Shown here in pieces: positions 2,457 through 30,089 of a stretch of DNA of 64,000 nt (within the stretch, counting starts at the first letter, position 1; each line of letters opens with the position of its first letter). Under the pieces are notes generated by a model. The model had not been told where the DNA came from, searched no databases, and worked only from the letters and a program-made list of their open reading frames with translations. Origin of the DNA: Actinomycetota bacterium (GTDB taxonomy: Bacteria; Actinomycetota; AC-67); contig DASWJS010000015.1 in assembly GCA_036397035.1 (NCBI GenBank), positions 2,105-66,104 on the forward strand, read 5' to 3'. Made by a program: the position numbers and the translations under genes.

Positions 2457-2506
2457 GGTTCTTGCTCCTCCCGAGTACGCAGGCGAACGTGATCCGAGAA
2501 CGAGGA

Positions 2507-4434: not shown

Positions 4435-4437
4435 GGT

Positions 4438-5454: not shown

Positions 5455-5463
5455 GGGCGAAGG

Positions 5464-5490
5464 CTAGCACTCGCCCTATGTGAGTGCTAA
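5464..5490. promoter_or_regulatory. CIRCE operator (HrcA site)
   Basis: Minus strand TTAGCACTC-N9-GAGTGCTAG, 1 mismatch to the CIRCE consensus, 9 nt before the hrcA ATG. Confidence 0.95.
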
Positions 5491-6578: not shown

Positions 6579-6624
6579 GCGCCTACCGTACGCTGCCGCT
6601 GCGGAACGAGTGAAGGAGCGGGCG

Positions 6625-9314: not shown

Positions 9315-9394
9315 GGCGTCAATCTACCTGCGGCGCAGTACCGGCGGGCGCGTTCGCCCGGGAGAGCGCGTGCTGATACCATCTGCCGCTGCTC

Positions 9395-9655
9395 ATGGCG
9401 AACATCAAGTCCCAGAAGAAGCGCATCCTGACCAACGAGGTGGCCAGGCAGCGCAACCAGGCCATCCGCTCGCGCCTGAAGTCCCACCGCCGCGTCTTCG
9501 CTGAGGCGCTCGAATCCGGCGACAAGGCCGCGGCCGAGGCGGCGCTGCGCCGGGCCCTGCGCGCCTACGACACGGCCGTGTCGGCGGGCGTGCTCCACCG
9601 GAACAACGCGGCCAACCACAAGGCGAAGCTCCAGCGGCAGTTCAACGCCGCGTAG
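9395..9655 (+). CDS. rpsT: 30S ribosomal protein S20
   Basis: MANIKSQKKRILTNE...GVLHRNNAANHK. Confidence 0.97.
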   Translation: MANIKSQKKRILTNEVARQRNQAIRSRLKSHRRVFAEALESGDKAAAEAALRRALRAYDTAVSAGVLHRNNAANHKAKLQRQFNAA

Positions 9656-10589: not shown

Positions 10590-10596
10590 ACGGCGG

Positions 10597-15909: not shown

Positions 15910-16568
15910 CACACCGTCACCAGCGGCTCGAGCGAGGCGAAGGTCTTGTCGCCGATCCCGCTGACGTTCTTGAGATCCTCGACGCTGCGGAAGCCGCCGT
16001 GCTGCTCGCGATAGTCCATGATCCGCTGCGCCAGGACCGGACCGATTCCGGGCAACGACTCGAGGTCGGCCTGGGAAGCGGTGTTGATGTTGACCAGGCC
16101 CGGCTCGTCCGCCCCGGCCGGCGCGCTTCCCCTGCTCTTGGCCGGGATGACGACCTGCTCGCCGTCGGCGAGCGGGCGCGCGAGGTTGATCGCGCCGCGA
16201 TCGGCTCCCTTCACGAAGCCGCCCGCTGCGCGCACCGCGTCGATCACCCGGTCGCCCTCGAGCAGCTCGTAGACGCCGGGCCGCTTCACCTCGCCGACGA
16301 CGTGAACGACGATGGGCAGGCCGGCCGCGGCCGGTTCGGACGACGACGCCGCCGCCGGGGTGAGCGCCGCGCTGCTCGCCACCGGTCGCGCCCGCACGTA
16401 GGCGAGCACCGCGCCCGTAACGACCAGCGCGGCCAGCAGGCCGAGCACCACCACCTCGCGCGGGCTGAAGCGGAGCGCGTCGAGCAGCCGCGCGCGCAGC
16501 AAGCCGAGCACCGTCGGTTGGGGCTCGGCGGACGAGGGCGGAGCGGAGTTGCTCGCGTCGTTCTCCAT
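15909..16568 (-). CDS. comEA: DNA-binding competence protein ComEA
   Basis: TM helix, SLBB (VHVVGEVKRPGVYEL), HhH (VNINTAS...LPGIGPVLAQRI). Confidence 0.94.
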   Translation of the reverse strand: MENDASNSAPPSSAEPQPTVLGLLRARLLDALRFSPREVVVLGLLAALVVTGAVLAYVRARPVASSAALTPAAASSSEPAAAGLPIVVHVVGEVKRPGVYELLEGDRVIDAVRAAGGFVKGADRGAINLARPLADGEQVVIPAKSRGSAPAGADEPGLVNINTASQADLESLPGIGPVLAQRIMDYREQHGGFRSVEDLKNVSGIGDKTFASLEPLVTV

Positions 16569-16652
16569 CGCGCGAACGGCTGGCGGGAAGGCGGGGGTAA
16601 CGGTGACACCCGCCCGGGGGCGGGTCACGGATGGGCGGAGCGCGCCGAAGCG

Positions 16653-19106
16653 CTACTTCACGACGAAGTTGACGAGCTTCGGAGGCCGGATGATCGTCTT
16701 GACGATCTCCTTGCCGTCGACGTGACGCCGCACGTTGTCCGAGGCCAGCGCGCGCTCGCGCATCTCGTCCTCGCCGATGCCGGCCGGCACCTCGATCGTG
16801 TCGCGCACCTTGCCCAGGACTTGCACGACCATGGTGACCGTCTCGACCGTCAGCAGAGCCGGGTCGGCGTCCGGCCAGGGCGCGCGCAGCAGCGGGGTCG
16901 CATTGCCCCAGCGGTGCCACAGCTCCTCGGTCACGAACGGCGCGAAGGGCGAGAGCAGCTTCACCAGCGCCACCACGGCCTCGCACACGTCGGCCTCGGC
17001 GGCGTCCTTCCGGTCGGCGATCTCGTTGGACAGCGTCATCATCTTCGCGATGGCCGTGTTGAAGCGGAAGCGCTCGACATCGCCGGTCACGCCCTCGATC
17101 GCGCGGTGGGTCGCGCGCCGCAGCGGCGAGTCGCCCGCGGGTTGCGGGCCCGCCGCGATCGACTCGGCATGGGCGACGCCCAGCCGCCACACGCGCGAGA
17201 TCCACCGGTAGACGCCCTGCGGGTTGACGTCGGCCCAGTCCACGTCGGCCTCGAACGGCCCGGCGAACATCATCGTGACGCGGGCAGTGTCCGCCCCGTA
17301 GTCGTCGATGATCGCCGAAGGCCGCACCAGGTTCCCGCGCGTCTTGGACATCTTCGAGCCGTCCATGACCACGTCGCCCTGGTTCACCAGGTTGGGATAG
17401 GGCTCGGCGAAGGGCACCAGGCCCAGGTCGTGGCAGACCTTGGTGAAGAAGCGCGAGTAGATCAGGTGGCCGGTCGCGTGCGTGATTCCCCCCACGTACT
17501 GGTCCACCGGCATCCAGCGGGCGACCGATTCGGTGTCGAAGGCGGCGTCCTGGCTCGGCCCCGCGTAGCGGAAGAAGTACCACGACGAGTCGATGAACGT
17601 GTCGAGCGTGTCGGTCTCGCGCTTCGCGTCGCCGCCGCAGCTCGGACACGGCACGTTCACCCAGCCCTCGATCTTGGCCAACGGCGACTGCCCGGTGCCG
17701 GTCGGCAGCCAGTCGGTCAGCTCCGGCAGCTCGACCGGGAGCTGGTCCTCGGGGACCGAAACCTCGCCGCAACGCGGACAGTGCACGATCGGGATCGGGC
17801 AGCCCCACGCGCGCTGGCGCGAGACGTTCCAGTCGCGCAGGCGGTAGCGCACGCGGCCGGTCCCCAGCCCTTCGGCCTCCAGCCACTTCACGACGGCGGC
17901 GATCCCGCCCGGCGTCGCGGTGCCGTCGAAGTCGCCCGAGTTCGCCATCAGTCCTTCGCCTTCGTAGGCGGCTTCCATCGTGTCGGCGTCGAGGCGCGCG
18001 TCGTCGGGTTGGATGACCACGCGCACGGGCAGCCCTTCCTGGCGAGCGAACTCGAAGTCGCGCTGGTCGTGCGCGGGGACGGCCATGATCGCGCCGGTCC
18101 CGTACTCCATCAGCACGTAGTCGGCCAGCCAGATCGGGATGTGCTCGCCGTTGACGGGGTTGATCGCGTGCGAGCCGGTGAAGATGCCCTCGCGCGCGTG
18201 CCCGGCCGCGGTGCGCTCGATCTCGGTCTTCGAGCGCACGCGGTCCACGAACGACCGGAACTCGTCGCGCCGGATCGGCGCCGTCAGCCGCTCGGCGAAC
18301 GGGTGCTCCGGCGCGAGCACCATGAAAGTCGCGCCCCACAGCGTGTCCGGCCGCGTGGTGTAGATCGTCAGCTCGTCGCCGGTCTCGGCGATCGTGAAGG
18401 TCACGTCGGCGCCCTGCGAGCGCCCGATCCAGTTGCGCTGGATCGTCAGCAGCCGCTCGCTCCAGCCGGTGAGCCGCTCCATGTCGTCCAGCAGCCGCTG
18501 CGCGTACTCCGACTCGCGGAAGAACCACTGCACCAGGTCGCGCTTGGTGACGGGCGTGTCGCATCGCTCGCACAGCCCGCCGATCACCTGCTCGTTGGCC
18601 AGCACGGTCTTGTCCTTCGGGCACCAGTTCGTCGGCGAGGACTTCCGGTAGACCAGGCCGGCCTCGCGGAACTTCAGGAACAGCCACTGCGTCCAGCGGT
18701 AGTACTCGGGGTCGCACGTGTGGAAGCGGCGAGTCCAGTCGAACGAGAATCCCACGCGCTTGAACGACTCCGCCTGCTGCTCGATGTTGGCGTAGGTCCA
18801 CGTGCGCGGGTTGATGCCGCGCTTGATGGCCGCGTTCTCCGCGTTCAGGCCGAAGGCGTCCCAGCCCATCGGGTGCAGGACGTTGAAGCCGCGCATCCAC
18901 TTGTAGCGCGCGACGATGTCGCCGCCCGTGTAGGCCTCCAGGTGCCCCATGTGCAGGTCGCCGGAGGGGTACGGGAACATGTCGAGCATGTAGAACTTCG
19001 GCTTGGCGCTCGTGGCCGGGTCCTCGGCCGTGAACAGCCCGTCGGCGACCCAGCGCTCGGCCCACGCGGGCTCGATCGCGTGCGGATCGTAGGCGTCCTG
19101 GCTCAT
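16653..19106 (-). CDS. leuS: Leucine--tRNA ligase
   Basis: MFPYPSGDLHMGH (HIGH), KMSKT (KMSKS), editing domain TTRPDT. Confidence 0.98.
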   Translation of the reverse strand: MSQDAYDPHAIEPAWAERWVADGLFTAEDPATSAKPKFYMLDMFPYPSGDLHMGHLEAYTGGDIVARYKWMRGFNVLHPMGWDAFGLNAENAAIKRGINPRTWTYANIEQQAESFKRVGFSFDWTRRFHTCDPEYYRWTQWLFLKFREAGLVYRKSSPTNWCPKDKTVLANEQVIGGLCERCDTPVTKRDLVQWFFRESEYAQRLLDDMERLTGWSERLLTIQRNWIGRSQGADVTFTIAETGDELTIYTTRPDTLWGATFMVLAPEHPFAERLTAPIRRDEFRSFVDRVRSKTEIERTAAGHAREGIFTGSHAINPVNGEHIPIWLADYVLMEYGTGAIMAVPAHDQRDFEFARQEGLPVRVVIQPDDARLDADTMEAAYEGEGLMANSGDFDGTATPGGIAAVVKWLEAEGLGTGRVRYRLRDWNVSRQRAWGCPIPIVHCPRCGEVSVPEDQLPVELPELTDWLPTGTGQSPLAKIEGWVNVPCPSCGGDAKRETDTLDTFIDSSWYFFRYAGPSQDAAFDTESVARWMPVDQYVGGITHATGHLIYSRFFTKVCHDLGLVPFAEPYPNLVNQGDVVMDGSKMSKTRGNLVRPSAIIDDYGADTARVTMMFAGPFEADVDWADVNPQGVYRWISRVWRLGVAHAESIAAGPQPAGDSPLRRATHRAIEGVTGDVERFRFNTAIAKMMTLSNEIADRKDAAEADVCEAVVALVKLLSPFAPFVTEELWHRWGNATPLLRAPWPDADPALLTVETVTMVVQVLGKVRDTIEVPAGIGEDEMRERALASDNVRRHVDGKEIVKTIIRPPKLVNFVVK

Positions 19107-19160
19107 GGTGCGCGTCAGTCTATCGAGGCGCGGATCGAGCTTCGCGCGGGTTTCGCCTCG

Positions 19161-20174
19161 TCAGGCCGCCCAGGCGGCGAGGAACGCGAGCGCGACCGTC
19201 GCGGCGTTGTCGGCGGCGAGCTGGCGGTAGTAGAAGAACTGGAACGGGAAGCCCGGCAGCCCGAGTGGGTCGCCGCCGCCGTCCGAAGCCGCACGGAACG
19301 CGATGAAGGGCACGCCCTTCTCCTCCGCGACCTTGGCGACCGCGGCAGTCTCCATGTCGAGCGCCACGTAGTCGCCCGGGGGCGGGGCCGAGGCGCCGAA
19401 GTAGTTGAAGAAGAAGTTCGGATCCACGAACGGCACGGCATGCTCGACGGTTCGCCGAGCCTCCGGCGCCCCGGTCGTCAGGGGAACGCGGCAGGGATGG
19501 CAGCCGAAGACGTCGCCGCCGCCGGGGAAGCACGGCAGCGTGCGCCCCTCGAAGCCGTCCGAGCTGGCGCCGTGCGCGCCCATGCGGATCCGCGGCTCCT
19601 CGGTGACGGTGACGGTCGTGACCGCGCGCGGGTCCGCGCCGACGCACGCGGGATCGCCCGCCGGCACGTCGCTCGCGAGCAGGACCGAGCCGCTCGACGC
19701 GACCGCCTCCGCCGTCGCGTACATCGCCGGGTCGACGGCGAAGTGGTGAACGCCGTCCAGCGTCCAGCCCTCCGGCACCATCACGTCGCCGATGTTGGGC
19801 CCTCCCGAGACGCCGGAAAACACGATCCCTTGGATGGTCGTGGCGTCCGCGCAGGAGAAGTGCTCGAGCGCGAGCCGGGTCGTTCTGTCCGCGTTCACCA
19901 GCCCGATCCCGGTCAACGCGAGCACGACGTCGTTGTCTTCGAGCGTCCCGACGTAGAAGGTGCCGGCGCCGGACGAGCCGTCGACGGCCTCGACGCGCTC
20001 GACGCTCGCCGCGCCGAGAAGCATGTCGATCTCTCCCGGAAAGGCCGACAGCACGAGCAGGCGGGGCGTGCAGTCGGGCTCCGCGGGCGCGAGGCTGGGC
20101 GCGCCGGCCACCGCCAGCGCGACCGCGATCAGAGCCGTTGCGCGCCTCACCAGAGCGGGGTTCGCCGCGCGCAC
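19161..20174 (-). CDS. MTA/SAH nucleosidase / nucleoside phosphorylase-fold protein with probable signal peptide
   Basis: [38 protein letters not shown]; hydrophobic N-terminus. Confidence 0.75.
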
Positions 20175-20242
20175 GCCTGCATCCTGCCTGGCGGAGATGC
20201 CGGTCGCGGGCGCGGGCGCCGCTGCTAGAATCCCGCGAACGC

Positions 20243-20315
20243 GGGGCTGTAGCTCAGTTGGTAGAGCGCCACGATGGCATCGTGGAAGTCAGGGGTTCGA
20301 ATCCCCTCAGCTCCA
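20243..20315 (+). tRNA. tRNA-Ala(GGC), CCA not encoded
   Basis: GGGGCTG/CAGCTCC acceptor stem with G3:U70, anticodon arm CCACG-AT GGC AT-CGTGG, GTTCGAAT T-loop; TAGAAT -10 upstream. Confidence 0.98.
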
Positions 20316-20320
20316 CTTGA
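20302..20320 (+). repeat. att site (left copy, tRNA 3' end)
   Basis: 19-bp repeat with 1 mismatch to 25903-25921. Confidence 0.85.
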
Positions 20321-21160
20321 GGTTCCTTAATAGAACCCTTCGACGGATGCTGTCGAAGGGTTCTTTGTATTCAACGCTGACGACCTGCCGGCCCTTGACG
20401 TAGACGGCCTTGAAGATCGCCTGGTTCCACTTCCTGCGGTCCTGCTCGTCCGCTCGCTTGTACGAGCGGTGGCAGTTGGCGATGAGCTCCAGGCACTTGT
20501 TGATGAGGTCGCGGGCCGCTTCGAGCTTGATCCCTGCGAGCGCGAGCTGGCTCTCGGCTTGGCTGACTTCGCTGTCGATGCGCTCCTGCTCTTGCTTGAA
20601 CATCTCCAACGGGAGGGCATCGGCGTAGTAGGCCTTGAGGAGCCGGTCGCGTTCGTTGGCGAGTTTGGCGAGGCGGCAACTTGCGAGCTGTGTGGCTCGC
20701 GTGCGGTCTCGCTCGCGCGTGGCGGCTTCCTGTTTGAGGTCCCGCTCGATATCGTCGCGTACCTCTTGGGGCAGTCGGATCTGTCGGTAAAGCTCCTCGA
20801 TCTGCCGCTCGATGGGGCCTGCCGGCGCGTATAGCTCTCGGCATTCGGTCCTTCGCTGATGTGACCCCAGGCAGAAGAAGTACTCGAAACGCCCTTGCTT
20901 CTTGATGAGACTCGACATCCGGGCGCCGCAGTTTCCGCAGAACAGGGTTCCGCGCAGGTAGTGCCCGCGCTGGCGTCTGCGATCCCCAGCTAGGTCGTGC
21001 GCTCGGAACACCTCTTGAACCTTGTCGAAGAGTTCGCGGCTCACGATCGGCTCATGCCGTCCTTCGTACTCGACGCCTTTGAAGACGACCTTTCCGATGT
21101 AGGCCTTGTTCTTGAGCAGCTCGGCGAACTTTGAGCGCGACAGCGGCTTGCCCGCTCGGT
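20307..21160 (-). pseudogene. Large serine recombinase, C-terminal half only (recombinase, Zn-ribbon and coiled-coil domains)
   Basis: LLKNKAYIG, GRHEPIVSRELFDKVQ, LRGTLFCGNCGARM, YFFC; no N-terminal catalytic resolvase domain; the ORF ends within the antisense of the tRNA 3' end. Confidence 0.85.
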
Positions 21161-21395
21161 TCGGTACCAACCAAACGTCGGCATGAGTAAGCTGGAGAAG
21201 ATCAACACCGAGAAGCTTGGCGAGCTCATCCCACGGGTTACATCCGTCTTCGAGGAAGCGTGCCGCTTCATCGAGGGACACTCCCAGCCCTTGCCCACCC
21301 TGGGTGTCAGCCCGACGCTCGCCGGGCTGGAAGACCATTGGAAGGAACTTCAAGAATGCAAGCGGATCAACGACGGTAAGGAGCCGACAACCTGA
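21159..21395 (+). pseudogene. 3'-terminal fragment of a larger protein, probably an SMC-like/AAA ATPase
   Basis: VRYQPNVGMSKLEKIN...FEEACRFIEGHSQPL.TL...PTL resembles C-termini I recall from island AAA ATPases; family call unverified. Confidence 0.4.
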
Positions 21396-21455
21396 CTCTG
21401 GGTAAGCGAGAAGCAGCGTGAAGCCAACTTTCGATCGCCTGTGATGCCAGTCTGG

Positions 21456-22094
21456 TTACTGATAGTCCGCAACGGAAGCGTCGTCGTCAGCCCTCATCCA
21501 GTCACCTACGCGGGCGCGACTTGGTAGGCGGGACTCACCCACCGGTTCGCCTCGGCGGTAGGCGTTCAGGTCATCCACCACGACTTTGAACGCGTCGACA
21601 AGCCGGGGGATCGCTGGGCCGCTGAGTGGCTTCGGCTGCCCAAAGCGGTCCTTGTCCGTTTCCTTCTGAAGCTCGTACACCTCGGCAAGGGCAGCGTTCA
21701 CGATATCGACGCGTTCTCGCAAGCTGGGTTCCGCAACTACATCCCGATTGATCGCGATCGCGGACTGGAGGGCGAGATAGAGTTCGCGGTAGTCCCAGTT
21801 GCTTCTCTCGATGAGGCGCTGAGCCGACACGAGGGCTTCGACGAGACGACCCGCTGCTTCCCTGGACAGGCTTCGCTCTCTGAACCGCCGCTCCTTGTCC
21901 ATCTCGTCAGCCATCCGTTTGGTCTGCCCGGCGTAATGTCGAGTGACCAAGACGAGGGCTAGCGTTACAAGAAAGGCTGCGATAGAAGCAGCCGCTTGGA
22001 TCCAGTCTGGGACGCCCGACGTGATCTCGACGACGACGTTCGCCGGGCTGGGGGTTACTCCGGCAGTCGGCGTCGGGCTTGGAGTCATCATCAT
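21456..22094 (-). CDS. Hypothetical protein with N-terminal TM helix
   Basis: 212-aa ORF, single hydrophobic segment WIQAAASIAAFLVTLALVLVT. Confidence 0.65.
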   Translation of the reverse strand: MMMTPSPTPTAGVTPSPANVVVEITSGVPDWIQAAASIAAFLVTLALVLVTRHYAGQTKRMADEMDKERRFRERSLSREAAGRLVEALVSAQRLIERSNWDYRELYLALQSAIAINRDVVAEPSLRERVDIVNAALAEVYELQKETDKDRFGQPKPLSGPAIPRLVDAFKVVVDDLNAYRRGEPVGESRLPSRARVGDWMRADDDASVADYQ

Positions 22095-22153
22095 GCGCGG
22101 ATTGTAGAGGCACTACACCGAGCTTGAGGCCCCCGGTCTCGGGCATCGGCTCT

Positions 22154-22182
22154 TTGACCCTGCCCACTTGGAGGGCTACCGT
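22154..22182 (+). promoter_or_regulatory. Sigma-A-type promoter of the island cargo run
   Basis: TTGACC-N17-TACCGT, 10 nt before ATG 22193. Confidence 0.6.
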
Positions 22183-22192
22183 TCTGTCGGAC

Positions 22193-22990
22193 ATGGGATG
22201 GCTGGCTAAGACTCGATCTCGAGTCGTTCGCTGGGTGCGAAGGACGATCGACTCCGGCAGGCGTTTCGGTTTCCATGTGCTCGATGGGCCGACATGGATG
22301 TCTGCGCTGGCCACCTTCATCGTCTTCCAGGCTTGGCGACGTCAGGATGCGATCCAGCTCTGGACCCTCGCCGGTCTTGCGTTCATCGGTTTGAGGGTGT
22401 GGGACAGACGACTGAGGGCCGGCGAAGAGAAGCCGGCCCGAATCACAGAACTTGAGAACACCCTCCGCACCCTGCTGTTCCCTGTCCGACTGTTGGTGAA
22501 GCTCACGGGCATCCTGATCGGTATCGCGATGGCAGGGGCCGCATGGATCGCCTTCTTGGGGGGCGCAGCCTGGATCGTGGAGCAAGGACAGCACCAGGAT
22601 TCAGGGCTGCTCAAGGCTCTCGGCTGGACGCTCTTCGGCATCGGCGTCCTTCCCGTCATAGGCCTTGTGTTAGCCGGGTGGATAAGCGACTGGGAAACTG
22701 GCGATGGTGGCTACTCGTCTCGGAGACCCGAACCCGAACCCGAGCTCTCATGGTGGCCGAAACGCGAGGATGGGTCGGAGGACGCCACACGGCCTCCCAG
22801 GAGAAGTGGTAGACCCGATCACGTGAGCAAATCCCAAACGTCTGCGTATCCCCTCGGCTTCGGTCCGATGCTCTACAAGACTGAGATAGAAGAAGATGGG
22901 GCCACGTATACAGGCCATGGATGGACAAGGAAGGAAGCGAACCAAGAGGCGAGCGGGAAGTATGGGCGCGGACAGAGAGATAGGCGATGA
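22193..22990 (+). CDS. Hypothetical multi-pass membrane protein with soluble C-terminal tail
   Basis: About 4 hydrophobic segments; ATGA overlap with the next gene; start moved to ATG 22193. Confidence 0.6.
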   Translation: MGWLAKTRSRVVRWVRRTIDSGRRFGFHVLDGPTWMSALATFIVFQAWRRQDAIQLWTLAGLAFIGLRVWDRRLRAGEEKPARITELENTLRTLLFPVRLLVKLTGILIGIAMAGAAWIAFLGGAAWIVEQGQHQDSGLLKALGWTLFGIGVLPVIGLVLAGWISDWETGDGGYSSRRPEPEPELSWWPKREDGSEDATRPPRRSGRPDHVSKSQTSAYPLGFGPMLYKTEIEEDGATYTGHGWTRKEANQEASGKYGRGQRDRR

Positions 22991-23244
22991 GCAGCCGGAG
23001 TATTCAGGTACCTCAGCACACACCTGGAGAAGCCACCAAGGGAAGGCGCCTCGCAATCTGCTTGATCCAGAGTTATCAACGACGCCTCGCGCCCAGGCTG
23101 CCTACAACGTGCGTGTACGAGCCGACGTGCTCGCAGTACATGGTCCTTTCCATTGAGAAGCACGGAGCGTTGAGGGGGCTGTGGTCAGGGGTGCGCAGGA
23201 TCGCACGCTGTCGCCCCGGTCGTGGTGGATACGACTATCCGTGA
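22987..23244 (+). CDS. YidD-like (membrane protein insertion efficiency factor / haemolytic domain) protein
   Basis: LIQSYQRRLAP...CVYEPTCSQY...IEKHG...G...IARCRP..GG.D with three conserved Cys. Confidence 0.88.
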   Translation: MSSRSIQVPQHTPGEATKGRRLAICLIQSYQRRLAPRLPTTCVYEPTCSQYMVLSIEKHGALRGLWSGVRRIARCRPGRGGYDYP

Positions 23245-23253
23245 GGGGGAGTT

Positions 23254-23436
23254 ATGGCCTACCAGTTGCTACCTGTAGCGAGCGAGTTTCGCCCCAAGGA
23301 CTTGGAGCGCCTCGCTGCTCAGCTCGATCAACTTCAAAGCGAAGGCTGGGAGCTCGTCTTCGTGTTCCCAGTGACGACCAAGACCTGCCTGTTCTTCACG
23401 AATCAAACCAATCTCATGGTCCTCCGAAGGGACTGA
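23254..23436 (+). CDS. DUF4177-like small protein
   Basis: LERLAAQLDQLQSEGWELV pattern; strong GAGGGGAG RBS. Confidence 0.6.
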   Translation: MAYQLLPVASEFRPKDLERLAAQLDQLQSEGWELVFVFPVTTKTCLFFTNQTNLMVLRRD

Positions 23437-23443
23437 CACCGCG

Positions 23444-24214
23444 TTGGATCGGGTCCGGGAACTCCGCTATGGCTTGCGATGGCTGGAGTCTCGTCACTCC
23501 GTGACCATCGCAGAAGATGCCCCCGCACTGGAGGGCAAGCTCGGGGACTTCAACGTGCGCTTAGAGGGGACAACGCTCTCAGCCACGCCTCTCGTGGACT
23601 TTTCGAGTGAAGAGACCGCTCGCGCGGCGATGGAGCCGTTGCTAGCGGACTGGGAGGTGGAGTGGGATCTCCGTCACGGGCTTGGGATGGCATTCTCCTT
23701 CGAGAGCTGTTCGTTGGAACCGGTGGGCGGTTCTGGTGGGAAGAACTTTAAGGTCCACGTCGCAGGTACGGTGAACGTTTCAGCATCCATGTCGGTTTCG
23801 AGGAGCGACTTTCCTCCCCTTCCCTCGGCGCTCAAGAGCACGCCTCTCATCCGCGAGCTTCGTGCAAGGCTGCACGATGTTAGAGACGAGCGTGAGCGCC
23901 TTCTCGTTGGCGCTCAGTGGATCCTGACCAGGCTCGAAGGACACTATGGAGGGCGTGCAGCAGCGGCTAAAGCGTTGTCCGTGTCAGGCAAGGCGCTTGA
24001 TGAGCTGGGGCGGCAGTGCGACCGCAACGATCCGGAGATTGGCCGGAAGGCCCGCAGGCCACCAGACCCGCTTTCCCCTGAGGAGAAGGGCTGGGTGCTC
24101 TATGCGGTGATAGCTCTGGTGATTCGTGCGGCTGAAGTGGAGGCAGGGCTGCAGCAACTTGGTACGTTGACCAAAGACACGCTGCACCTGTACACGGGAA
24201 CGAGAGCGCCATGA
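23444..24214 (+). CDS. Hypothetical protein (island-associated)
   Basis: 256-aa ORF, ATGA overlap with the next gene. Confidence 0.6.
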   Translation: MDRVRELRYGLRWLESRHSVTIAEDAPALEGKLGDFNVRLEGTTLSATPLVDFSSEETARAAMEPLLADWEVEWDLRHGLGMAFSFESCSLEPVGGSGGKNFKVHVAGTVNVSASMSVSRSDFPPLPSALKSTPLIRELRARLHDVRDERERLLVGAQWILTRLEGHYGGRAAAAKALSVSGKALDELGRQCDRNDPEIGRKARRPPDPLSPEEKGWVLYAVIALVIRAAEVEAGLQQLGTLTKDTLHLYTGTRAP

Positions 24215-24618
24215 GCCAGATGCACTGTACCGATTGCGAGGCCACGATTGACGTCGCACACGCGGGCGATCCTTGTCCCACCTGTGGGAGCATCGACCGG
24301 TCCATCCTCGGATCCGACTCCGGTCGTGGCCGGGAGTTCGCGATCTCCAAGCAGGGAACGCCGCCCCTCGGAGAACCGCTTACGAACAAGTGGGTAAGGC
24401 GCGAGGTCCGAGCTGGCGAACCCGGACAGCGCGACGGCACCCGGCGTGAGCTATACAGGGAGATTGATCGAGACCGAGACCTCTACCGCGAGAGGGTCGT
24501 GAATCTGGAGTCGGGGGAGGTTGAGCGCGACGTGGAAGAGCCGCTGACCGAGCACCGCCAGAGAGAACGCCAATCTCGCTCCAAGGGAGGCAGCGCAACC
24601 GGTAGCAATGGAGAATAG
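24211..24618 (+). CDS. Zinc-ribbon hypothetical protein
   Basis: CTDC...CPTC; C-terminal IDRDRDLYRERVVNLESGEVERDVEEPLTEH. Confidence 0.65.
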   Translation: MSQMHCTDCEATIDVAHAGDPCPTCGSIDRSILGSDSGRGREFAISKQGTPPLGEPLTNKWVRREVRAGEPGQRDGTRRELYREIDRDRDLYRERVVNLESGEVERDVEEPLTEHRQRERQSRSKGGSATGSNGE

Positions 24619-24663
24619 CCCGGCAATCGTCAGTTAAGCCGGCCAACCCCGACGTCATCAATC

Positions 24664-25716
24664 TTGAGTTTAGACGATTCGCTTGCTTCGTGGGACGAGG
24701 TTGCCCCACAGTTTCACCACGCTCTCCTTGTCGGGAACGGAGCGAGTATTGCTGTTTCTGCGTCGTTCGCATATCCCTCACTGCTCGAGATCGCGAGCAG
24801 TTCGCTTGTAGCCAATCGGCTGTCGCCTGACGAGCGAGCGGTCTTCGAATCGACGAACGACACCAACTTCGAACGTGTACTTGGCGAGCTCGCTACGGCG
24901 GCTGTGCTAGCGGAACAGGTTGGACTGGATGCAACTCCTCTCCGTGAACGTTATGCTCGCATCAGGCGAGCGCTGATTGAGGCCGTCCATGCAGTCCATC
25001 CTCGGCATGGCGACTTGCCAGAGGAGCGTTTCGAACGCGTCCAGGAATCGCTTCTCCACTTCAGTGAAGTGTTCACTACGAATTACGACCTGCAACTTTA
25101 TTGGGCGATCACAAGCACGAAGCGTATGGACGACTTCCGTGACTTCTTCTGGAATCCTGGGCTGGCGTTCGATCTAACGAATACGTGGACTCCGGAGGAC
25201 AAAGTCCGCGTGTTCTATCTCCATGGCGCGCTCCACCTCTTTCACCTGCCGAATGGAACGACCGTCAAGGCCACAGGGGGCGACGACAACCCGTGGAGTC
25301 CCTACGTGCCGTTGCTTGATCTCACCTTTGAATACAAGGAGGCCCGCTACCCTCTCTTTGTCAGTGAGGGCTCCACGGAGCAGAAGATGGCGGCCATCAC
25401 TTCCAACGCCTATCTCGGGTTCGCATACGAGACGTGGAACCGGATGTGCTGGGACTGGTCCAGCACACTTGTCATCTTCGGACACGGATGCGGCGCGCAA
25501 GACGAACACATATGCGCACCGATCAAGGCACGAGTTGCGAAGTCTCAGGAGAGGGATCTCTCGGTGCCGAAGATTGCCGTTTCGATTGCTCCCCGCGACA
25601 GTGACCATGTCATTGCTCGGAAGCTCCATTATCGCGAGAAGTTTCACGAAGATATCGTCTTTTTCGATGCGAGGACGCACCCGCTTGGGCAACCCACCGA
25701 CCCACCATCACCATGA
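24664..25716 (+). CDS. DUF4917-family, SIR2-like domain protein
   Basis: LLVGNGAS, NFERVL, FTTNYDLQLYW, FYLHGALHLF, PLFVSEG. Confidence 0.75.
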   Translation: MSLDDSLASWDEVAPQFHHALLVGNGASIAVSASFAYPSLLEIASSSLVANRLSPDERAVFESTNDTNFERVLGELATAAVLAEQVGLDATPLRERYARIRRALIEAVHAVHPRHGDLPEERFERVQESLLHFSEVFTTNYDLQLYWAITSTKRMDDFRDFFWNPGLAFDLTNTWTPEDKVRVFYLHGALHLFHLPNGTTVKATGGDDNPWSPYVPLLDLTFEYKEARYPLFVSEGSTEQKMAAITSNAYLGFAYETWNRMCWDWSSTLVIFGHGCGAQDEHICAPIKARVAKSQERDLSVPKIAVSIAPRDSDHVIARKLHYREKFHEDIVFFDARTHPLGQPTDPPSP

Positions 25717-25902
25717 TTCCAGGGCCAGGCGCTGCTCCGTTTCCAGGATCGATAAACCTACCTCGTCGTGGGCGGCGTTTGCGCAGGGAGTTCCCGCTAG
25801 CCGGAGAGCATCTTGAGCTGATTTAGCTGAGCTAGGCACTCGACTGCGATCTCCAGCAGTTCAGGAAGCTGTTCTCGCCGCCTGGAAGGAGTTCTACTAC
25901 TG

Positions 25903-25921
25903 TCCCCTCACCTCCACTTGA
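25903..25921 (+). repeat. att site (right copy, tRNA-Ala 3' fragment)
   Basis: TCCCCTCACCTCCACTTGA, preceded by the T-arm-like GGAGTTCTA. Confidence 0.85.
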
Positions 25922-25976
25922 CCCTCCGGTAACCACCGGTAACCGAACCCTTCTGGGACCTGCGCGGTCGACCCCA

Positions 25977-26030
25977 TTGACGCCTCTTCGATCTGGCCCT
26001 AGCATGGTCCTGTAATAAGGCTTGTTACAG
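25977..26030 (+). promoter_or_regulatory. Promoter and palindromic operator of the CopG-PIN TA locus
   Basis: TTGACG-N17-TAGCAT (25977-26005), then CTGTAATAAG-G-CTTGTTACAG inverted repeat (26010-26030). Confidence 0.7.
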
Positions 26031-26042
26031 AAGGGCGGATGG

Positions 26043-26303
26043 ATGCGTCCAAGTCAAACGGTCACGGTTTCTCTTCCGCCCGAGCTCGCTCGTGAGGTTG
26101 ATCGGGTCGCGCGCAAGGAGGGCCGAAGCCGAAGCGAGATGTTCCGGGAGGCTCTACGGCAGTACCTTGCTCGGCGTGACCGCTGGGATCGGATCTTCGC
26201 GGTGGGTGAGCAGGCAGCGCAACGTCTCGGCGTTACCGAGCAGGACGTGACCGCTGCGGTCAAGGCTCGGCGGAAGGCGCGGACCCGCAAGGCTCGCCGC
26301 TAG
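26043..26303 (+). CDS. CopG/RHH antitoxin
   Basis: TVTVSLPPELAREVDRVARKEGRSRSEMFREAL; stop overlaps the toxin start. Confidence 0.88.
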   Translation: MRPSQTVTVSLPPELAREVDRVARKEGRSRSEMFREALRQYLARRDRWDRIFAVGEQAAQRLGVTEQDVTAAVKARRKARTRKARR

Positions 26304-26710
26304 TGCGGGTACTCCTCGACACGAACGTCCTGCTCTCGGCCATCTTGTTCGGCGGGATCCCTCGAAGGCTGCTCGAGGCAGCGATCGACGGCCGGCTGCG
26401 CCTGGTGACAAGCCGGCATCTCATGGAGGAATTCGAGGAGATCCTGGAGGACAGGTTCGACTTCTCGAAGGCGGCCGCCGTCGAGACGAGATCCGAACTC
26501 GAGGTGCTGGCGGAGCTGGTGGAACCGCTCGAGGTCCGGCAGGTATGCAGGGATCCGGATGACGACCACGTCTTGGCGGCAGCCGTAGCGGGCCAAGCCG
26601 AGGCGATCATCACCGGCGACCGTGATCTCCTGGCGTTGGAGTGGCACGAGGAAGTCGAGATCCTGACGCCGGCATCGTTCGATCTCCGGTTGCGGGATCT
26701 CGATAAGTAG
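26303..26710 (+). CDS. PIN-domain toxin (PIN_3-type)
   Basis: VLLDTNVLLSA, CRDPDDDHVL, IITGDRDLL. Confidence 0.9.
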   Translation: MRVLLDTNVLLSAILFGGIPRRLLEAAIDGRLRLVTSRHLMEEFEEILEDRFDFSKAAAVETRSELEVLAELVEPLEVRQVCRDPDDDHVLAAAVAGQAEAIITGDRDLLALEWHEEVEILTPASFDLRLRDLDK

Positions 26711-26805
26711 CCTCAAGGCTCGACCGAAAGCGGCGTCGATGGAGCCAGGGCGCGGTTCGCGCACCGTTCTGTTGAGACCACCACGCTCGCTCCGACCAAC
26801 GGCTG

Positions 26806-27210
26806 CTATTCGGCCGTGCCGAGTTTGGCCGGCCGGATGACCCGCACGTCCTTCATCGGAAAGTCGGTCACGTTGTCGGTCACGAGCACCGCGCCGTGTG
26901 CCCTGGCTGTTCCGGCGATGAGAGCATCAGCCAGATGAACGGTCTTTCCCTTCTTCGCCCAGTCGGACTGATACCGGCCGGCTTTCTCCGCGGCCTCCCT
27001 CGTCGTGGTGAGAAACTCCATCCGATCGAGCAGCGCTTCGGCAGCTCGACGTTCTGACGGCCGCAACCCACGCTCGATCTCGGCGATGTTGACGCAAGAG
27101 ACGCACAGGGAGTCGCCGTGTTGAAGCAGCGCCAGAAGACTGTGCGCGACCGACTCGTCCCCCCGAAGGTGGGCTATCAGAACGGTAGTGTCCAGGAGAT
27201 AGCGGCTCAT
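26806..27210 (-). CDS. vapC: VapC PIN-domain toxin
   Basis: YLLDTTVLI, IAEIERG, ADALIAGTA, LVTDNVTDF; ATG 27210 overlaps the antitoxin stop. Confidence 0.9.
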   Translation of the reverse strand: MSRYLLDTTVLIAHLRGDESVAHSLLALLQHGDSLCVSCVNIAEIERGLRPSERRAAEALLDRMEFLTTTREAAEKAGRYQSDWAKKGKTVHLADALIAGTARAHGAVLVTDNVTDFPMKDVRVIRPAKLGTAE

Positions 27211-27452
27211 CCACTCCGTCCGGATCTGCGCCCCTCCCGAACCCACCTGGCGGCCGTCTGCCGATCCTTCCAATGCGTGTAGCGCTTGCCGCTCGTCAAG
27301 CCTCTGGTCGCATGGAGTGATTCCTCCAGCTCCAAGCGCGAGAGCTTTTCGCGAGCGGCCTCCTCTAGGAATCTGCTGCGGCCCCGTTCGCCGACCTTCT
27401 CGTCGATCGCCGCGAGCAGGTCGTCTGCCATCACCACATGGGTTCTCGCCAC
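27207..27452 (-). CDS. RHH-type antitoxin
   Basis: RTHVVMADDLLAAIDEKVGERGRSRFLEEAAREKL; upstream of VapC. Confidence 0.8.
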   Translation of the reverse strand: MARTHVVMADDLLAAIDEKVGERGRSRFLEEAAREKLSRLELEESLHATRGLTSGKRYTHWKDRQTAARWVREGRRSGRSG

Positions 27453-27475
27453 CGCCGCTCTTCTCCCTCAATAAA

Positions 27476-27520
27476 TCCCACTGGATGTCCCACTCTATCC
27501 ATCGGCGGTCGATCAATCAA
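27476..27520 (-). promoter_or_regulatory. Promoter and repeat operator of the second TA locus
   Basis: Minus strand TTGATT-N17-TAGAGT (27520-27492); TCCCACT direct repeats at 27476-27482 and 27488-27494. Confidence 0.55.
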
Positions 27521-27719
27521 GAGGAGATGGGGAGGAAGCAGAATCCTTCCGGAGTGCAGCGAGGCCGAAGCGGTGAGCGGGGCGCGTTGACCTGCGTCTG
27601 CGCGGGTCTCGGAAGGAGTTGGACCGGCGCCGTCGAACCGAGGGTTCTGGGACCGGGCTCTGCCGGTACCCGACGGGCCCGCGACGGCACGAACCCACGA
27701 CGAGGAAGGCGGCGACGGG

Positions 27720-30089
27720 ATGTTGGACGGCATGCAGGAAACGAAGCGCTCCGGGCACACCCATCGCGTACGCGCCCTCGTCGTGACGGCATGTCTGGCA
27801 ATCGGCTCGCTGGCGACCGCCGGGAGCCGGGCCTCGGCCACGGACTTCACCGCCTCGGGAAGCGCAGAGCAGGTCTACGTCCTCGGCGCGGCGCCCGGCG
27901 TGGAGATGTCGCTGCTCACGCCCGAGGGCGCCGTTCTGTACACGCAGACCGCGAACGCGAACGGGGGGCTGCTGTTCCGCGACGTCCCGCCGGGCGAGGG
28001 ATACCGTGTCGAGTCCGACGGGACCCTGTCGAACCCGCTCACCGTGCACGGCGACGACGCAGCGCCGTGGGATCCGAGCATCTACCAGCAGCCCATCCCT
28101 GCCAGCGGGTACGGCTACCTCACGACCCGCGACGGGACGCAGCTCGCCTACACCGTCCACCCGCCGACCAGCCCGGCAGGTCAGCCGGGGCTGCCGCACG
28201 GCACCGACGTGCCCGACGGCCCCGCCGGCGTGGACTACCTCCCGCCCTACCCCACGCTGATCGAGTATTCCGGATACGGCTACGCCAACCCAGCCGGGCC
28301 CCAGAGCGGGATCGCCGTCCTTGCGAACCTCATGGGCTTTGCCGTCGTCGACGTGAACATGCGCGGGACGGGTTGCTCGGGCGGCGCCTTCGACTTCTTC
28401 GAGCCGCTGCAGAGCCTGGACGGCTACGACGTCGTGGAGACGATCGCCAACCAGCCGTGGGTGCTCGGCAACCGCGTCGGGATGCTCGGCATCTCCTACG
28501 GCGGGATCAGCCAACTGTTCACCGCGCAGCTTCAACCGCCTCACCTGGCGGCGATCACGCCGCTGTCGGTCATCGACGCGACCGCGACGACGCTGTACCC
28601 GGGCGGCATCCTCAACACGGGCTTCGCCGTCGCCTGGGCCGCAGAGCGCCAGAGCCAGGCTCGCCCGGCGCCGGACGGACAGGGCTGGGCGAACCAGCGG
28701 ATCGAAGAAGGCGACGAGACGTGCGCCGCCAATCAGGCGCTCCACGGCGAGGCGGCCGACCTGATGCAGAAGATCACCGACAACAGCCACTACGTCCCGG
28801 CGGTCGCCGACCCGCTCGACCCGGTGACGTTCGTTCACAAGATCAACGTGCCGACGTTCATGGTCTGCCAGTGGCAGGACGAGCAGACCGGCGGGCACTG
28901 CCCGGAGCTGGCCAAGAACTTCACCGGCACGGACAAGAAGTGGTTCACCTTCACGAACGGCGCCCATATCGACTCGCTGGATCCCGAGACCTACAACCGC
29001 TGGTACGACTTCCTGCAGTTGTACGTCGCCCGCCAGGCGCCGATCGTCAACCAGGCGCTCAGCCGCGCGGCCGCGCCGGTCATCTACCAGGAGGCGATGG
29101 GCCTTCCCGACGACCACGTCGTCACCCTGCCGCTCGATCCCATCCAGCAAATCCCCACCTACGACGCGGCTCTCGCAGCCTTCGAAGCGCAGCCGCCGAT
29201 CCGCGTGCTGTTCGACAACGGCGCCGGCACCTCGCCGACCGGGGACCAAACCCCGGGCGACCCGTACGCGGCGTTCGCGCGCGATTTCTCCTCCTTCCCG
29301 ATTCCCGGCACGGCCGCGCAAACCTGGTACTTCGGCCCGGAGGGCGCCCTCTCGGACCAGTTGCCGCCGGACGCGGGCATCGACCAGTACACGTCCGACG
29401 TGAGCGCGCTGCCCCTGACGAACTTCACCGGAGGCACCGGCGGCGGCGGCCTGTGGGGCAACGCGTCCCAGTGGATCTGGGATTGGCAGCAGAACCCGGC
29501 CGGGAAGGCTCTGTCCTACGTCTCGTCACCGCTCGCCGCGGACACGACGGTCATCGGCGCCGGAGCCGTCTACGCCTGGGTGCGCTCGTCGACCCCCGAC
29601 GTGGACCTTCAAGCCACGATCAGCGAGGTTCGTCCGGACGGCAACGAGACGTTCGTTCAGAACGGCTACATGCGCGCCAGCGAACGCAAGCTCTCCACCG
29701 ACGCCGGCAACCTGTTCAAGACGCCCAGCACGCTGCTCAACCCGATCCCGAGCTTCCTGGAGGCGGACGCGTCCCCCATGCCGAGCGGCGAGTTCGTCAA
29801 GGTCGCGATCCCGCTCTACTACCAGGGACATGTCTATCGAGCGGGCTCGCGCATCCGCGTGACCATCGCGGCGCCGAACGGCGCGCAGCCCGTGTGGTCG
29901 TTCGGCGAGACGGTGCCGGCCGGCACGGCGGAGGTGTCGATCGCGTTCTCTCCGACGCAACCCTCGAAGCTCGTGCTCCCGGTGGTGCCGGGGTTCCGGG
30001 CCCCGACGCCGTTGCCGCCGTGCCCGAGCTTGCGGAACCAGCCATGCAGGCCCTATCAAGCGATCGTCAACGGCTCGGCATCGCAATAG
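27720..30089 (+). CDS. Secreted CocE/NonD (S15-like) serine hydrolase
   Basis: Signal peptide, YPTLIEYSGY, VNMRGTGCSGG, GISYGG nucleophile elbow, C-terminal jelly-roll. Confidence 0.85.
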   Translation: MLDGMQETKRSGHTHRVRALVVTACLAIGSLATAGSRASATDFTASGSAEQVYVLGAAPGVEMSLLTPEGAVLYTQTANANGGLLFRDVPPGEGYRVESDGTLSNPLTVHGDDAAPWDPSIYQQPIPASGYGYLTTRDGTQLAYTVHPPTSPAGQPGLPHGTDVPDGPAGVDYLPPYPTLIEYSGYGYANPAGPQSGIAVLANLMGFAVVDVNMRGTGCSGGAFDFFEPLQSLDGYDVVETIANQPWVLGNRVGMLGISYGGISQLFTAQLQPPHLAAITPLSVIDATATTLYPGGILNTGFAVAWAAERQSQARPAPDGQGWANQRIEEGDETCAANQALHGEAADLMQKITDNSHYVPAVADPLDPVTFVHKINVPTFMVCQWQDEQTGGHCPELAKNFTGTDKKWFTFTNGAHIDSLDPETYNRWYDFLQLYVARQAPIVNQALSRAAAPVIYQEAMGLPDDHVVTLPLDPIQQIPTYDAALAAFEAQPPIRVLFDNGAGTSPTGDQTPGDPYAAFARDFSSFPIPGTAAQTWYFGPEGALSDQLPPDAGIDQYTSDVSALPLTNFTGGTGGGGLWGNASQWIWDWQQNPAGKALSYVSSPLAADTTVIGAGAVYAWVRSSTPDVDLQATISEVRPDGNETFVQNGYMRASERKLSTDAGNLFKTPSTLLNPIPSFLEADASPMPSGEFVKVAIPLYYQGHVYRAGSRIRVTIAAPNGAQPVWSFGETVPAGTAEVSIAFSPTQPSKLVLPVVPGFRAPTPLPPCPSLRNQPCRPYQAIVNGSASQ

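Follow-up and report, generated by a model that had tools for sequence, protein, structure and literature searches.

Which recombinase placed a low-GC island at the 3′ end of a tRNA-Ala(GGC) gene, and at which nucleotides of the gene the strands were exchanged, are the questions raised by this locus. By the standard view, stated outright in a 2014 database paper, it is tyrosine integrases that target tRNA and tmRNA genes, and serine integrases insert elsewhere. Here, the tRNA gene is adjoined by the remnant of a large serine recombinase (LSR). The analyzed stretch of DNA, 64 kb in length, is referred to below as the window.

Borders, composition, and cargo of the island

The tRNA-Ala(GGC) gene is intact (ARAGORN, 20243–20316, plus strand; 20243–20315 is a full-length match to Rfam RF00005 at 70 bits), and its 3′ end, the integration target, lies within attL. 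The last ~14–15 nt of the gene (nt 60–73) and ~4–5 nt of the trailer (CTTGA) form the left copy of a 19-bp repeat, TCCCCTCAGCTCCACTTGA, at 20302–20320 of the plus strand (attL identity block). The right copy, TCCCCTCACCTCCACTTGA, lies on the same strand at 25903–25921 (attR identity block); the copies differ at one base, G at 20310 vs. C at 25911. A search with TCCCCTCAGCTCCACTTGA at up to three mismatches in the 64-kb window yields two matches, both at the island borders, with 0.04 expected from shuffles, and between 19.8 and 28.2 kb this is the sole direct repeat of ~95% identity. The first-pass annotation had described a 19-bp repeat of the tRNA 3′ end with one mismatch at both borders, and this is confirmed; its coordinate 25902 is one off, the right copy starting at 25903. 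A repeat common by chance, which it had named as grounds for rejection, is not what is seen in the window.

The GC content is ~0.70–0.74 left of 20250, 0.56–0.64 over 20250–26000, and 0.63–0.65 on to ~27500. The 12-point fall, from ~72% to ~60%, coincides exactly with the tRNA end, so the reported lower GC inside the island holds relative to the left flank (~0.60 vs. ~0.72). The right-hand transition is gradual and extends to ~27.5 kb; hence, the right border at 25921 is not marked by composition alone. Of the 5.6-kb extent proposed before, the tRNA border stands, while the right border does so only in part, as foreign DNA may reach ~27.5–28.06 kb. Several features by which tRNA islands are recognized are present: intact tDNA at one border, a direct repeat formed by its displaced 3′ fragment at the opposite border, an integrase gene (truncated) in the island next to the tDNA, and a composition unlike that of the left flank. 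That an integrative element occupies the 3′ end of tRNA-Ala, with a recombinase of the large-serine type, is supported.

The cargo includes a hypothetical ORF of 212 aa without a family match (21456–22094, minus strand) and a candidate hypothetical ORF of 303 aa (22079–22990, plus strand), possibly encoding a membrane protein, judging by eye from hydrophobic stretches. Further on the plus strand are a gene for a YidD-family membrane protein insertion efficiency factor (22987–23244; PF01809, E = 6e-23; TIGR00278), two overlapping hypothetical ORFs of 256 and 135 aa (23444–24618), the latter with an N-terminal CxxC...CxxC motif, and, downstream of them, a gene for a DUF4917/SIR2-like protein (24664–25716; PF16263, E = 5.5e-39). 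This protein matches the PADLOC model of PDC-S21 (SIR2-like, DUF4917), itself only a candidate system, nearly at full length (E = 2.3e-86; residues 5–344 vs. profile positions 11–330 of 336), which suggests a defence role and makes it a candidate anti-phage protein. The low-GC right flank (25922–27517), which may be either the stump of an older island or native sequence, contains genes for an RHH antitoxin (26022–26303) and a PIN toxin (26303–26710), and a second PIN-domain gene (26806–27516, minus strand). No tyrosine integrase (Phage_integrase, PF00589) was found in the 20 ORFs scanned with Pfam between 20.3 and 27.5 kb, of which 17, all of at least 85 aa, overlap the island (20.3–25.9 kb) and three are in the right flank.

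The search for an empty site by means of the flanking phosphorylase gave six loci in the GTDB genome scan, at most 60% identical and none with an adjacent tRNA-Ala; among 5.8 billion proteins, the best non-self match was 68% identical, and none of four contigs examined was syntenic. No empty site was found because no close relatives have been sampled. In the public runs, a Logan contig is unbroken over 20288–28091 without a branch at attR that would indicate excision or an empty site, Logan contigs being known to drop rare variants; the island is present wherever the organism is seen. As neither an empty site, nor an excised circle, nor an attP form of the window's element was found, integration at exactly these borders is inferred rather than observed.

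The recombinase fragment and its relatives

The LSR remnant is encoded by an ORF of 348 aa on the minus strand (20307–21353; Pfam PF07508, partial, and PF13408; tblastn, BLASTP). It ends in ...LLRNLKWS*, with the TGA stop formed by the antisense of TCA at 20307–20309, within the left repeat; the ORF does read antisense into the att core and end there (RNLKWS*), as stated earlier, and this is also a family-wide trait. Real homology is confined to 20346–21161, starts ~30 nt from the tRNA end, and corresponds to approximately residues 212–484 of relatives of 505–525 aa; the first 62 residues of the ORF have none. The match to the Recombinase domain PF07508 is partial (profile positions 33–99 of 102, E = 4.7e-9), its first third being missing or diverged. 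The zinc ribbon PF13408 is found at residues 133–189 (E = 8e-8), and its four Cys are conserved throughout the family alignment. The Resolvase catalytic domain PF00239, present with the conserved catalytic serine in the 505–525-aa relatives, is absent from the ORF according to Pfam, and no remnant of LSR residues 1–150 occurs anywhere in the window in any frame. The breakpoint of the truncation is covered by independent contigs in X1 and X2 with zero differences. A frameshifted tail of the ORF, where another frame matches the tail of the full-length clade member P0004 at 78%, was dropped as a case of protein conservation, since each tail merely runs antisense to tRNA-Ala.

Judged by its domains, the window's copy is a gene fragment and not a functional member of the large serine recombinases; with the catalytic domain absent, the island cannot move itself. 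Hence, of the earlier proposal that an LSR mobilised the island, the large-serine type is retained, and the ability of this ORF to mobilise it is not. That the island is now immobilised proved right for a different reason, namely the loss of the catalytic domain and of the first third of the recombinase domain. The enzyme most likely to have integrated the island is still this LSR.

The clade to which the fragment belongs is strongly associated with tRNA and tmRNA genes. An antisense tRNA or tmRNA gene lies at or near the LSR 3′ end in 37 of the 47 clade loci with enough downstream sequence; five further loci have attL-type dyads with tRNA fragments, and among more distant LSRs from IMG/VR such adjacency is seen in 3/41. 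Its members occupy at least 12 tRNA species as well as tmRNA. The geometry of the window recurs with full-length relatives at tRNA-Ala(GGC) (L001) and at tmRNA (L002, L003). Together, the window locus and ~50 related loci point to a whole LSR clade dedicated to tRNA/tmRNA 3′ ends. The closest viral contigs in IMG/VR (L091, L092, L095), searched for attP forms, carry attL-type dyads with tRNA fragments instead. In deposited phage and plasmid collections, no LSR match reached 60%; the best full-length match is ~25% identical.

The backbones of the relatives contain replication- or transfer-type genes (Replic_Relax, methylases, DUF87/T4SS ATPase). The cargo of the island has nothing in common with these backbones (Replic_Relax, methylases, ATPase), so its origin from the same element is assumed. 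In 43 other family loci, exact-seed and mismatch-tolerant searches found no attR within 10 kb upstream. This does not mean that other elements have no repeats, a reading that was rejected; a normal element exceeds 10 kb, and the island in the window has shrunk.

Architecture of the att sites

The T-loop heptamer GGTTCGA (20294–20300, plus strand), used as the anchor of the family attL alignment, would be the outer motif of the B half-site. On the island side, the P′ arm carries TAGAACC (20331–20337, plus strand), which matches the reverse complement of GGTTCGA at 6/7 positions, exactly at +30 nt. The same mirrored motif, with at least 5/7 matches and exactly 30 nt downstream on the island side, is seen in 32 of 43 distinct attL junctions vs. 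3/22 control tRNAs; at any other offset, it is found in 0–4 attL sites. The family consensus at +30 is TCGAACC, and TAGAACC takes its place in the window.

The P arm is available from two loci, the window and the tandem array L173. In the window, the outer P-arm motif AGTTCTA (25890–25896, plus strand; model scan) matches the reverse complement of the P′ motif at 6/7 positions; in L173, the P and P′ motifs are exact reverse complements of each other, separated by a 35-nt spacer, and the 7-nt core reads GGTCCAC. The model scan matched only these two loci, and the match in the window is single in 43.6 kb and situated at the 19-bp repeat. The B-arm GGTTCGA is 9 nt from the 7-nt core, and the P-arm motif is 14 nt from it, i.e., 5 bp further out. 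Accordingly spaced are the junctions: GGTTCGA–30 nt–T(C/A)GAACC in attL, and mirrored motifs 35 nt apart in attP-type junctions, the latter geometry being based on n = 2, as the P arm comes from two loci only. The predicted B′ arm right of attR is a poor match to the motif (3–4/7).

The short dyad sites and the 5-bp attB/attP offset characteristic of LSR att sites are seen in these two loci, the window and L173. For the LI integrase of a Listeria innocua prophage, the motif bound by the zinc-ribbon domain lies 5 bp further out in attP than in attB (PMC3783163), and inner half-site positions are assumed to be bound alike by the recombinase domain in attP and attB (Rutherford et al., 2013). By analogy, we infer that the outer motifs are zinc-ribbon-domain sites. 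The 30-nt attL and 35-nt attP-type spacings would place the crossover at 20312–20314 (tRNA nucleotides T70-C71-C72, dyad centre at C71), leaving the G/C mismatch at 20310 on its left.

With a crossover at nt 70–72, what the island restores would be limited to the final bases of the tRNA, the trailer, and the terminator. The idea of a tRNA-restoring repeat is therefore kept for the last 2–4 tRNA bases, the trailer, and the terminator, and is probably wrong as the main cause of the 19-bp identity; the rest of the identity is probably shared inner half-site sequence. The predicted intrinsic terminator of the tRNA is a hairpin with a 15-bp stem followed by TTGTATT (20332–20364, plus strand; fold −26 kcal/mol, z = −5.1); the hairpin is island DNA, lies within the 3′ end of the recombinase ORF, and has counterparts in relatives.

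Tentatively, and a little short of an even chance, the window may be read as a fossil of a large, essentially uncharacterised LSR clade that takes the near-universal T-arm GGTTCGA as the left outer motif of attB, repeats it in mirrored form in an attP located within the 3′ end of the recombinase gene, and exchanges strands at nt 70–72. If true, the T-arm design would explain the spread of one clade over such a variety of targets. No description of a T-arm-based att architecture was found in the literature.

Origin of the island and comparison with known systems

The sequence 20321–25921 is quite probably the shrunken remnant of an integrative element that entered the 3′ end of tRNA-Ala(GGC) through its own LSR and was later fixed by deletion. 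The element, which was probably an integrative mobilisable or conjugative one, would have entered by attP × attB recombination, its recombinase coming from a clade whose members are almost always tail-to-tail with a tRNA or tmRNA gene. The left half-site of attB would be the tRNA T-arm with its outer motif; in attP, both arms would have carried this motif in mirrored form, each 5 bp farther out than in attB, and strands would have been exchanged at tRNA nt 70–72. After integration, the final bases of the tRNA, its 3′ trailer, and an intrinsic terminator would come from the island, and the recombinase ORF would run through the terminator and the att core up to a stop. A later deletion would have eliminated the catalytic domain together with the beginning of the recombinase domain, and probably also the greater part of the element backbone, leaving a fixed 5.6-kb island with the YidD gene, several hypothetical genes, and the SIR2-like defence candidate (PDC-S21).

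The right border leaves room for a larger foreign segment, from the tRNA to ~27.5–28.06 kb, in which 25903–25921 would be an internal junction of a tandem array, formed by a newer LSR element in the attL of an older one, now a stump holding the toxin–antitoxin genes. GC remains at 0.63–0.65 up to ~27500, tandem arrays exist in the family (L173), and the 9-mer GAACCCTTC of the P′ arm/terminator (20333–20341) occurs again at 25945–25953, after a 10-nt tandem duplication; in run X1, moreover, the contig 20288–28091 has a depth of 14.1 vs. 18–24 in both flanks, and the graph breaks at the tRNA and at 28062–28091. However, a second LSR remnant and a third junction were sought right of 25921 without success: no LSR remnant is present there, and up to 30.5 kb the tRNA end does not occur a third time, nor does a core-plus-motif site appear. 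CGAACC is 26 nt away from the core, or 16 nt if the duplication is discounted, vs. the expected 14 nt, and toxin–antitoxin genes are often lower in GC outside islands too. On balance, we consider the larger segment unlikely. Less likely still is that the truncated ORF has been kept as a DNA-binding protein occupying att sites, e.g., blocking related elements. Its 272 homologous residues do form one open frame without an internal stop, 50–56% identical to full-length relatives, and N-terminally truncated homologues are numerous in metagenomes; but the recombinase domain lacks its first third, the 62 N-terminal residues have no real homology, and the truncations break at different points, and so look like independent decay.

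Long direct repeats of tRNA 3′ ends are the classical signature of islands inserted by tyrosine integrases (PMC4383910), and such an enzyme, since lost, might have inserted this one, with the serine-recombinase fragment as an unrelated passenger. This is very improbable: the scanned ORFs contain no Phage_integrase domain, the fragment has exactly the position, orientation, and tRNA distance of dozens of full-length relatives, and both borders carry the fixed-offset motif of the LSR family. Even less credit is due to a 19-bp repeat that matches by chance or is the relic of a duplicated tRNA, with the low-GC genes being native. The P-arm TGGAAG (25883–25888) is found in the tRNA variable region as well (20283–20288), as in a decayed tRNA copy; against this stand the low chance expectation for the repeat, the independent 6/7 motif at the predicted +14 offset, the GC drop exactly at the tRNA end, and the recombinase remnant adjoining the junction.

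Under the preferred reading, a shrunken element brought in by its own LSR, the copy in the window is an ordinary outcome, a decayed and fixed island that leaves a candidate defence gene. The att architecture of the clade is legible from sequence and agrees with the structural model of how attP and attB are discriminated. If confirmed, such elements would escape rules for island finding that take a tyrosine integrase at tDNA for granted, the T-arm motif would account for switching between tRNA targets, and the clade would provide new unidirectional integrases with ready-made natural landing sites in almost any genome.

The classical tRNA/tmRNA islands of tyrosine integrases (Islander-type; PMC4383910) share with the window the intact tDNA, the displaced 3′ fragment as a direct repeat, the integrase gene beside the tDNA, and the atypical composition. 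They differ in the recombinase family; in addition, the window's crossover would be at the extreme 3′ end (nt 70–72), and its identity block would be mostly shared half-site sequence and not gene restoration. LSR integration into tRNA genes was termed "rare" in the accessible text of a 2011 report (PMC3218068). The Mycobacterium enzymes described there are likewise LSRs with PF07508 from actinobacterial hosts that target tRNA genes; unlike in those elements, the target in the window is tRNA-Ala(GGC), and the backbone and the catalytic domain have been lost. The same accessible text notes no T-arm dyad or crossover position. Mycobacterial prophage surveys place Int-S sites outside tRNA genes, and a large LSR survey leaves tRNA targets unmentioned. 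With streptococcal ICEs in rumA (PMC4701971), the window shares an att site embedded in a serine integrase ORF (there, the ICE attR inside the gene); unlike the window's family, those ICEs target a protein-coding gene, have Firmicutes hosts, and belong to an unrelated LSR clade. The Listeria A118/LI integrase, phiC31, and Bxb1 have the same architecture of a recombinase domain (matched in part in the window), a zinc ribbon, and a putative coiled coil, and dyad att sites with the outer motif 5 bp closer in attB (PMC3783163); the window family differs from the characterised large serine integrases in sequence, with ~25% identity at best over the full length, and in the overlap between its attP and the 3′ end of the recombinase gene.

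Borders and composition of the island

The sole tRNA gene of the window, tRNA-Ala(GGC) at 20243–20316 on the plus strand (ARAGORN), is full-length by Rfam (70 bits). The 19-mer TCCCCTCAGCTCCACTTGA at 20302–20320 comprises tRNA nucleotides 60–73 and the trailer CTTGA; the second copy at 25903–25921 (attR, the right repeat) has one mismatch (G20310 vs. C25911). With up to three mismatches allowed, the 64 kb contain no match besides these two (shuffles predict 0.04), and the pair is the only high-identity direct repeat of the region. GC content drops exactly at the tRNA, from 0.70–0.74 to 0.56–0.64, and the minus-strand ORF 20307–21353, a large serine recombinase (LSR) relative, terminates with ...RNLKWS*, its stop codon lying within the repeat. 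Hence, the tRNA call, the repeat statistics, the GC drop, and the position of the stop confirm what the first-pass annotation had described, that is, a repeat of the tRNA end at both borders of the island (20321–25921), lower GC inside, and a recombinase ORF ending in the att repeat. In the left flank (13618–20174), the minus strand encodes ComEC, leucyl-tRNA synthetase, and a PNP_UDP_1 phosphorylase; very long alternative-frame ORFs there (e.g., 15999–20228) are high-GC artefacts.

Neither an empty site nor an excised form turned up in related genomes or in public soil-metagenome Logan contigs. None of the closest phosphorylase homologues exceeds 68% identity or is syntenic (the source is a sparsely sampled soil actinobacterium), and the island is present in public soil-metagenome runs wherever the organism occurs. 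In one such run, X1, a single unbroken contig spans 20288 to 28091; this speaks against any empty site or circle being detectable at 25903–25921. The depth of this contig, covering the island and a toxin–antitoxin region, is 14.1 vs. 18–24 for both flanks, and the X1 assembly graph is interrupted at the tRNA and again at 28062–28091; hence, a co-occurring strain may share the flanks and differ over the whole 20.3–28.06 kb.

The right repeat could also be the internal junction of a tandem array, with the stump of an older element extending further right. This is suggested by persistently low GC past the repeat (0.63–0.65 over 26.0–27.5 kb, back to approximately 0.70 only beyond), by the genes in this interval, an RHH–PIN toxin–antitoxin pair and a second PIN gene (63–65% GC, to 27517), and by the 9-mer GAACCCTTC at 25945–25953, identical to one in the P′ motif/terminator arm at 20333–20341. 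The 9-mer follows a 10-nt tandem duplication directly right of attR (CCGGTAACCA / CCGGTAACCG, 25926–25945). The segment 25922–27517 may thus be what is left of an earlier element of this family; however, neither an LSR remnant nor a third junction was found right of the repeat, and we regard the array as unlikely. The only promoter-like site in 20.0–26.3 kb, a sigma-70-like match TTGACG-17-TAGCAT at 25977–26005, closely precedes the RHH antitoxin gene (26022).

Decay of the recombinase gene and of the island

The island carries an LSR gene reduced to its C-terminal part. Pfam identifies in the window ORF a partial Recombinase domain (profile positions 33–99 of 102) and a recombinase zinc ribbon, and no Resolvase catalytic domain. 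The full-length proteins among 115 homologues have 505–525 aa and contain PF00239, with 90% or higher conservation of the catalytic-serine motif RVS[ST]. True homology covers 20346–21161, corresponding to residues ~212–484 of the relatives at 50–56% identity (tblastn, BLASTP); over the initial ~62 ORF residues, alignment to relatives is only nominal, and no trace of LSR residues 1–150 is seen in any frame across the whole window. The truncation is not an assembly artefact, since independent Logan contigs of two runs cover the breakpoint with zero differences. The window element is unable to move itself: with the catalytic domain missing and no remnant of residues 1–150 in the window, the earlier description of the island as immobilised is right, while its being mobilised by a large serine recombinase holds for the past but not for the present, the enzyme now being a fragment. 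N-terminally truncated LSR ORFs of the clade are numerous in metagenomes, with differing break points (P0003, P0005, P0014, P0049, P0056, P0060, P0072, and P0082); loss of the catalytic end by decay seems to recur in this clade.

The island itself is a shrunken remnant. In relatives, the LSR gene is accompanied by backbone genes for Replic_Relax, DUF87/T4SS-type ATPase, methylases, and ImmA/HTH regulators, none of which is present in the window island, and an attR within 10 kb is absent in all 43 other loci. The cargo consists of a 212-aa hypothetical ORF, a possible membrane protein, a YidD homologue, two small hypothetical ORFs, and a DUF4917/SIR2-like protein with a full-length match to the PADLOC phage-defence candidate PDC-S21 (E = 2.3e-86). 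No tyrosine integrase domain was found by Pfam in 20 ORFs of 20.3–27.5 kb, 17 of which overlap the island. An LSR island in a tmRNA gene (L002/L003, 5500–9400) carries ThiF/BilD_N and JAB-domain genes, a set resembling a Bil-type ubiquitin-like defence system, accompanied by an ImmA/IrrE peptidase and HTH regulators; elements of this family may often have defence cargo.

Architecture of the att sites

The T-loop-anchored alignment of 51 distinct tRNA-proximal junctions (consensus GGTTCGAGTCCCnTCnGCTCCACCAnAAnnnTCTTAnTCGAACC) shows, at a constant spacing on the island side, the reverse complement of the T-loop heptamer. With the offset set to exactly 30 nt, agreement in at least five of seven positions is seen for 32 of 43 distinct sites, and in at least six for 21; each of the other offsets from 15 to 49 is represented by 0–4 sites; in control tRNAs not adjoining an LSR, the mirrored motif occurs in 3/22. 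The window tRNA-side junction (attL) has GGTTCGA (20294–20300), 30 nt, and TAGAACC (20331–20337), next to which a strong hairpin and T-run (20332–20364) form a predicted intrinsic terminator for tRNA-Ala. Comparable hairpins follow the mirrored motif in relatives.

One locus, L173, contains two such elements in tandem within tRNA-Ala(GGC). The tRNA junction reads GGTTCGA-9 nt-GGTCCAC-14 nt-GTGAACC, and the internal junction GGTTCAC-14 nt-GGTCCAC-14 nt-TCGAAC. Here, reverse-complementing the P′ motif of the same element gives exactly the P arm motif (spacer 35 nt), which sits 5 bp farther from the core than the motif in the tRNA arm. By the published LSR rule, the zinc-ribbon-domain motif lies 5 bp inward in attB compared to attP, and for the recombinase domain, binding to identical inner positions of the two sites is assumed (Rutherford et al., 2013; PMC3783163). 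When all loci were scanned for [reverse complement of own P′ motif]-14 nt-[tRNA nt 68–74] with at most two mismatches, only L173 (0 mismatches) and the window were positive; the single window match in 43.6 kb is AGTTCTA at 25890–25896, 14 nt before the core 25911–25917 in the right repeat. Both L173 elements (1–11000) consist of Replic_Relax and LSR; in the tRNA-proximal LSR, the Resolvase part (9278–9898) and the zinc-ribbon part (10001–10873) are separate ORFs, and the distal LSR (2012–3589) is intact.

In both the window and L173 the symmetry centre is tRNA C71, which would place the crossover dinucleotide at T70–C71 or C71–C72 (window 20312–20314), as far as two loci allow. Such a crossover lies right of the G68 mismatch, so that the tRNA would keep its own G68 and attR the attP base. 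The island would then replace just the last 2–4 tRNA bases, the trailer, and the terminator, and most of the 19-bp identity (nt 60–69) would fall on the side unneeded for rebuilding the tRNA; inner half-site sequence common to attP and attB accounts for it better. The identity block of L173 is 7 bp only. The first-pass interpretation stands as to the kind of element (a now immobile serine-recombinase element located at a tRNA), but not as to the state of the enzyme or the meaning of the repeat, read there as tRNA-restoring. The window P arm (25883–25888) shares TGGAAG with the tRNA variable region (20283–20288), and the L173 P arm (~3530–3560) resembles this region as well (GAAAGG vs. GAAGG). 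The attP resembles the 3′ half of a tRNA whose T-loop motif has moved 5 bp outward, a hint that it derives from a captured tRNA copy.

Association with tRNA and tmRNA genes across the clade

Among 80 metagenomic loci of the clade, 47 have at least 700 nt after the LSR gene, and 37 of these carry an antisense tRNA or tmRNA starting at −200 to +600 nt from it; five more loci show tRNA fragments at junctions built in the same way. Targets include tRNAs for Ala (GGC, TGC, CGC), Val, Leu, Lys, Met, Gly, Arg, His, Ile, Glu, and Pro, and tmRNA. For more distant IMG/VR LSRs, such adjacency is seen in 3/41 loci, and deposited phages and plasmids contain no close relative of the window LSR (best full-length matches ~25% identical). 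The link between recombinase and tRNA is a family trait. P0004 (525 aa, locus L001) terminates within antisense tRNA-Ala(GGC), and P0007 (L002, L003) within the 3′ end of the tmRNA gene. Most predicted C-termini in the clade alignment have the form ...VE.xG(F/L/I)EP..., which is the antisense translation of the tRNA acceptor and T-arm, and past the conserved EPF motif, the tails show no conservation at the protein level. That the stop codon falls within the att core is incidental, as family ORFs run through the terminator and att site until the antisense tRNA supplies a stop. At L091 (3100–3260), the LSR is followed by only a ~47-nt tRNA 3′ fragment with an intact attL-type dyad and then by 42 kb called provirus; this tRNA was probably split again by a second element.

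The local object is an ordinary decayed island, and the value of the locus is in the LSR clade it reveals. In the literature searched, whose coverage is incomplete, we found no description of a T-arm-mirrored att architecture. Targets in tRNA genes are unmentioned in the large LSR survey of Durrant et al., and mycobacterial prophage surveys place Int-S sites outside tRNA genes. Ghinet et al. (2011; PMC3218068) list eight AICE serine recombinases from Mycobacterium in a single tRNA-Leu gene, call such integration "rare", and cite as sole precedent the small resolvase-like enzyme of phiRSM1. Att sites within serine integrase genes are known from streptococcal ICEs in rumA.
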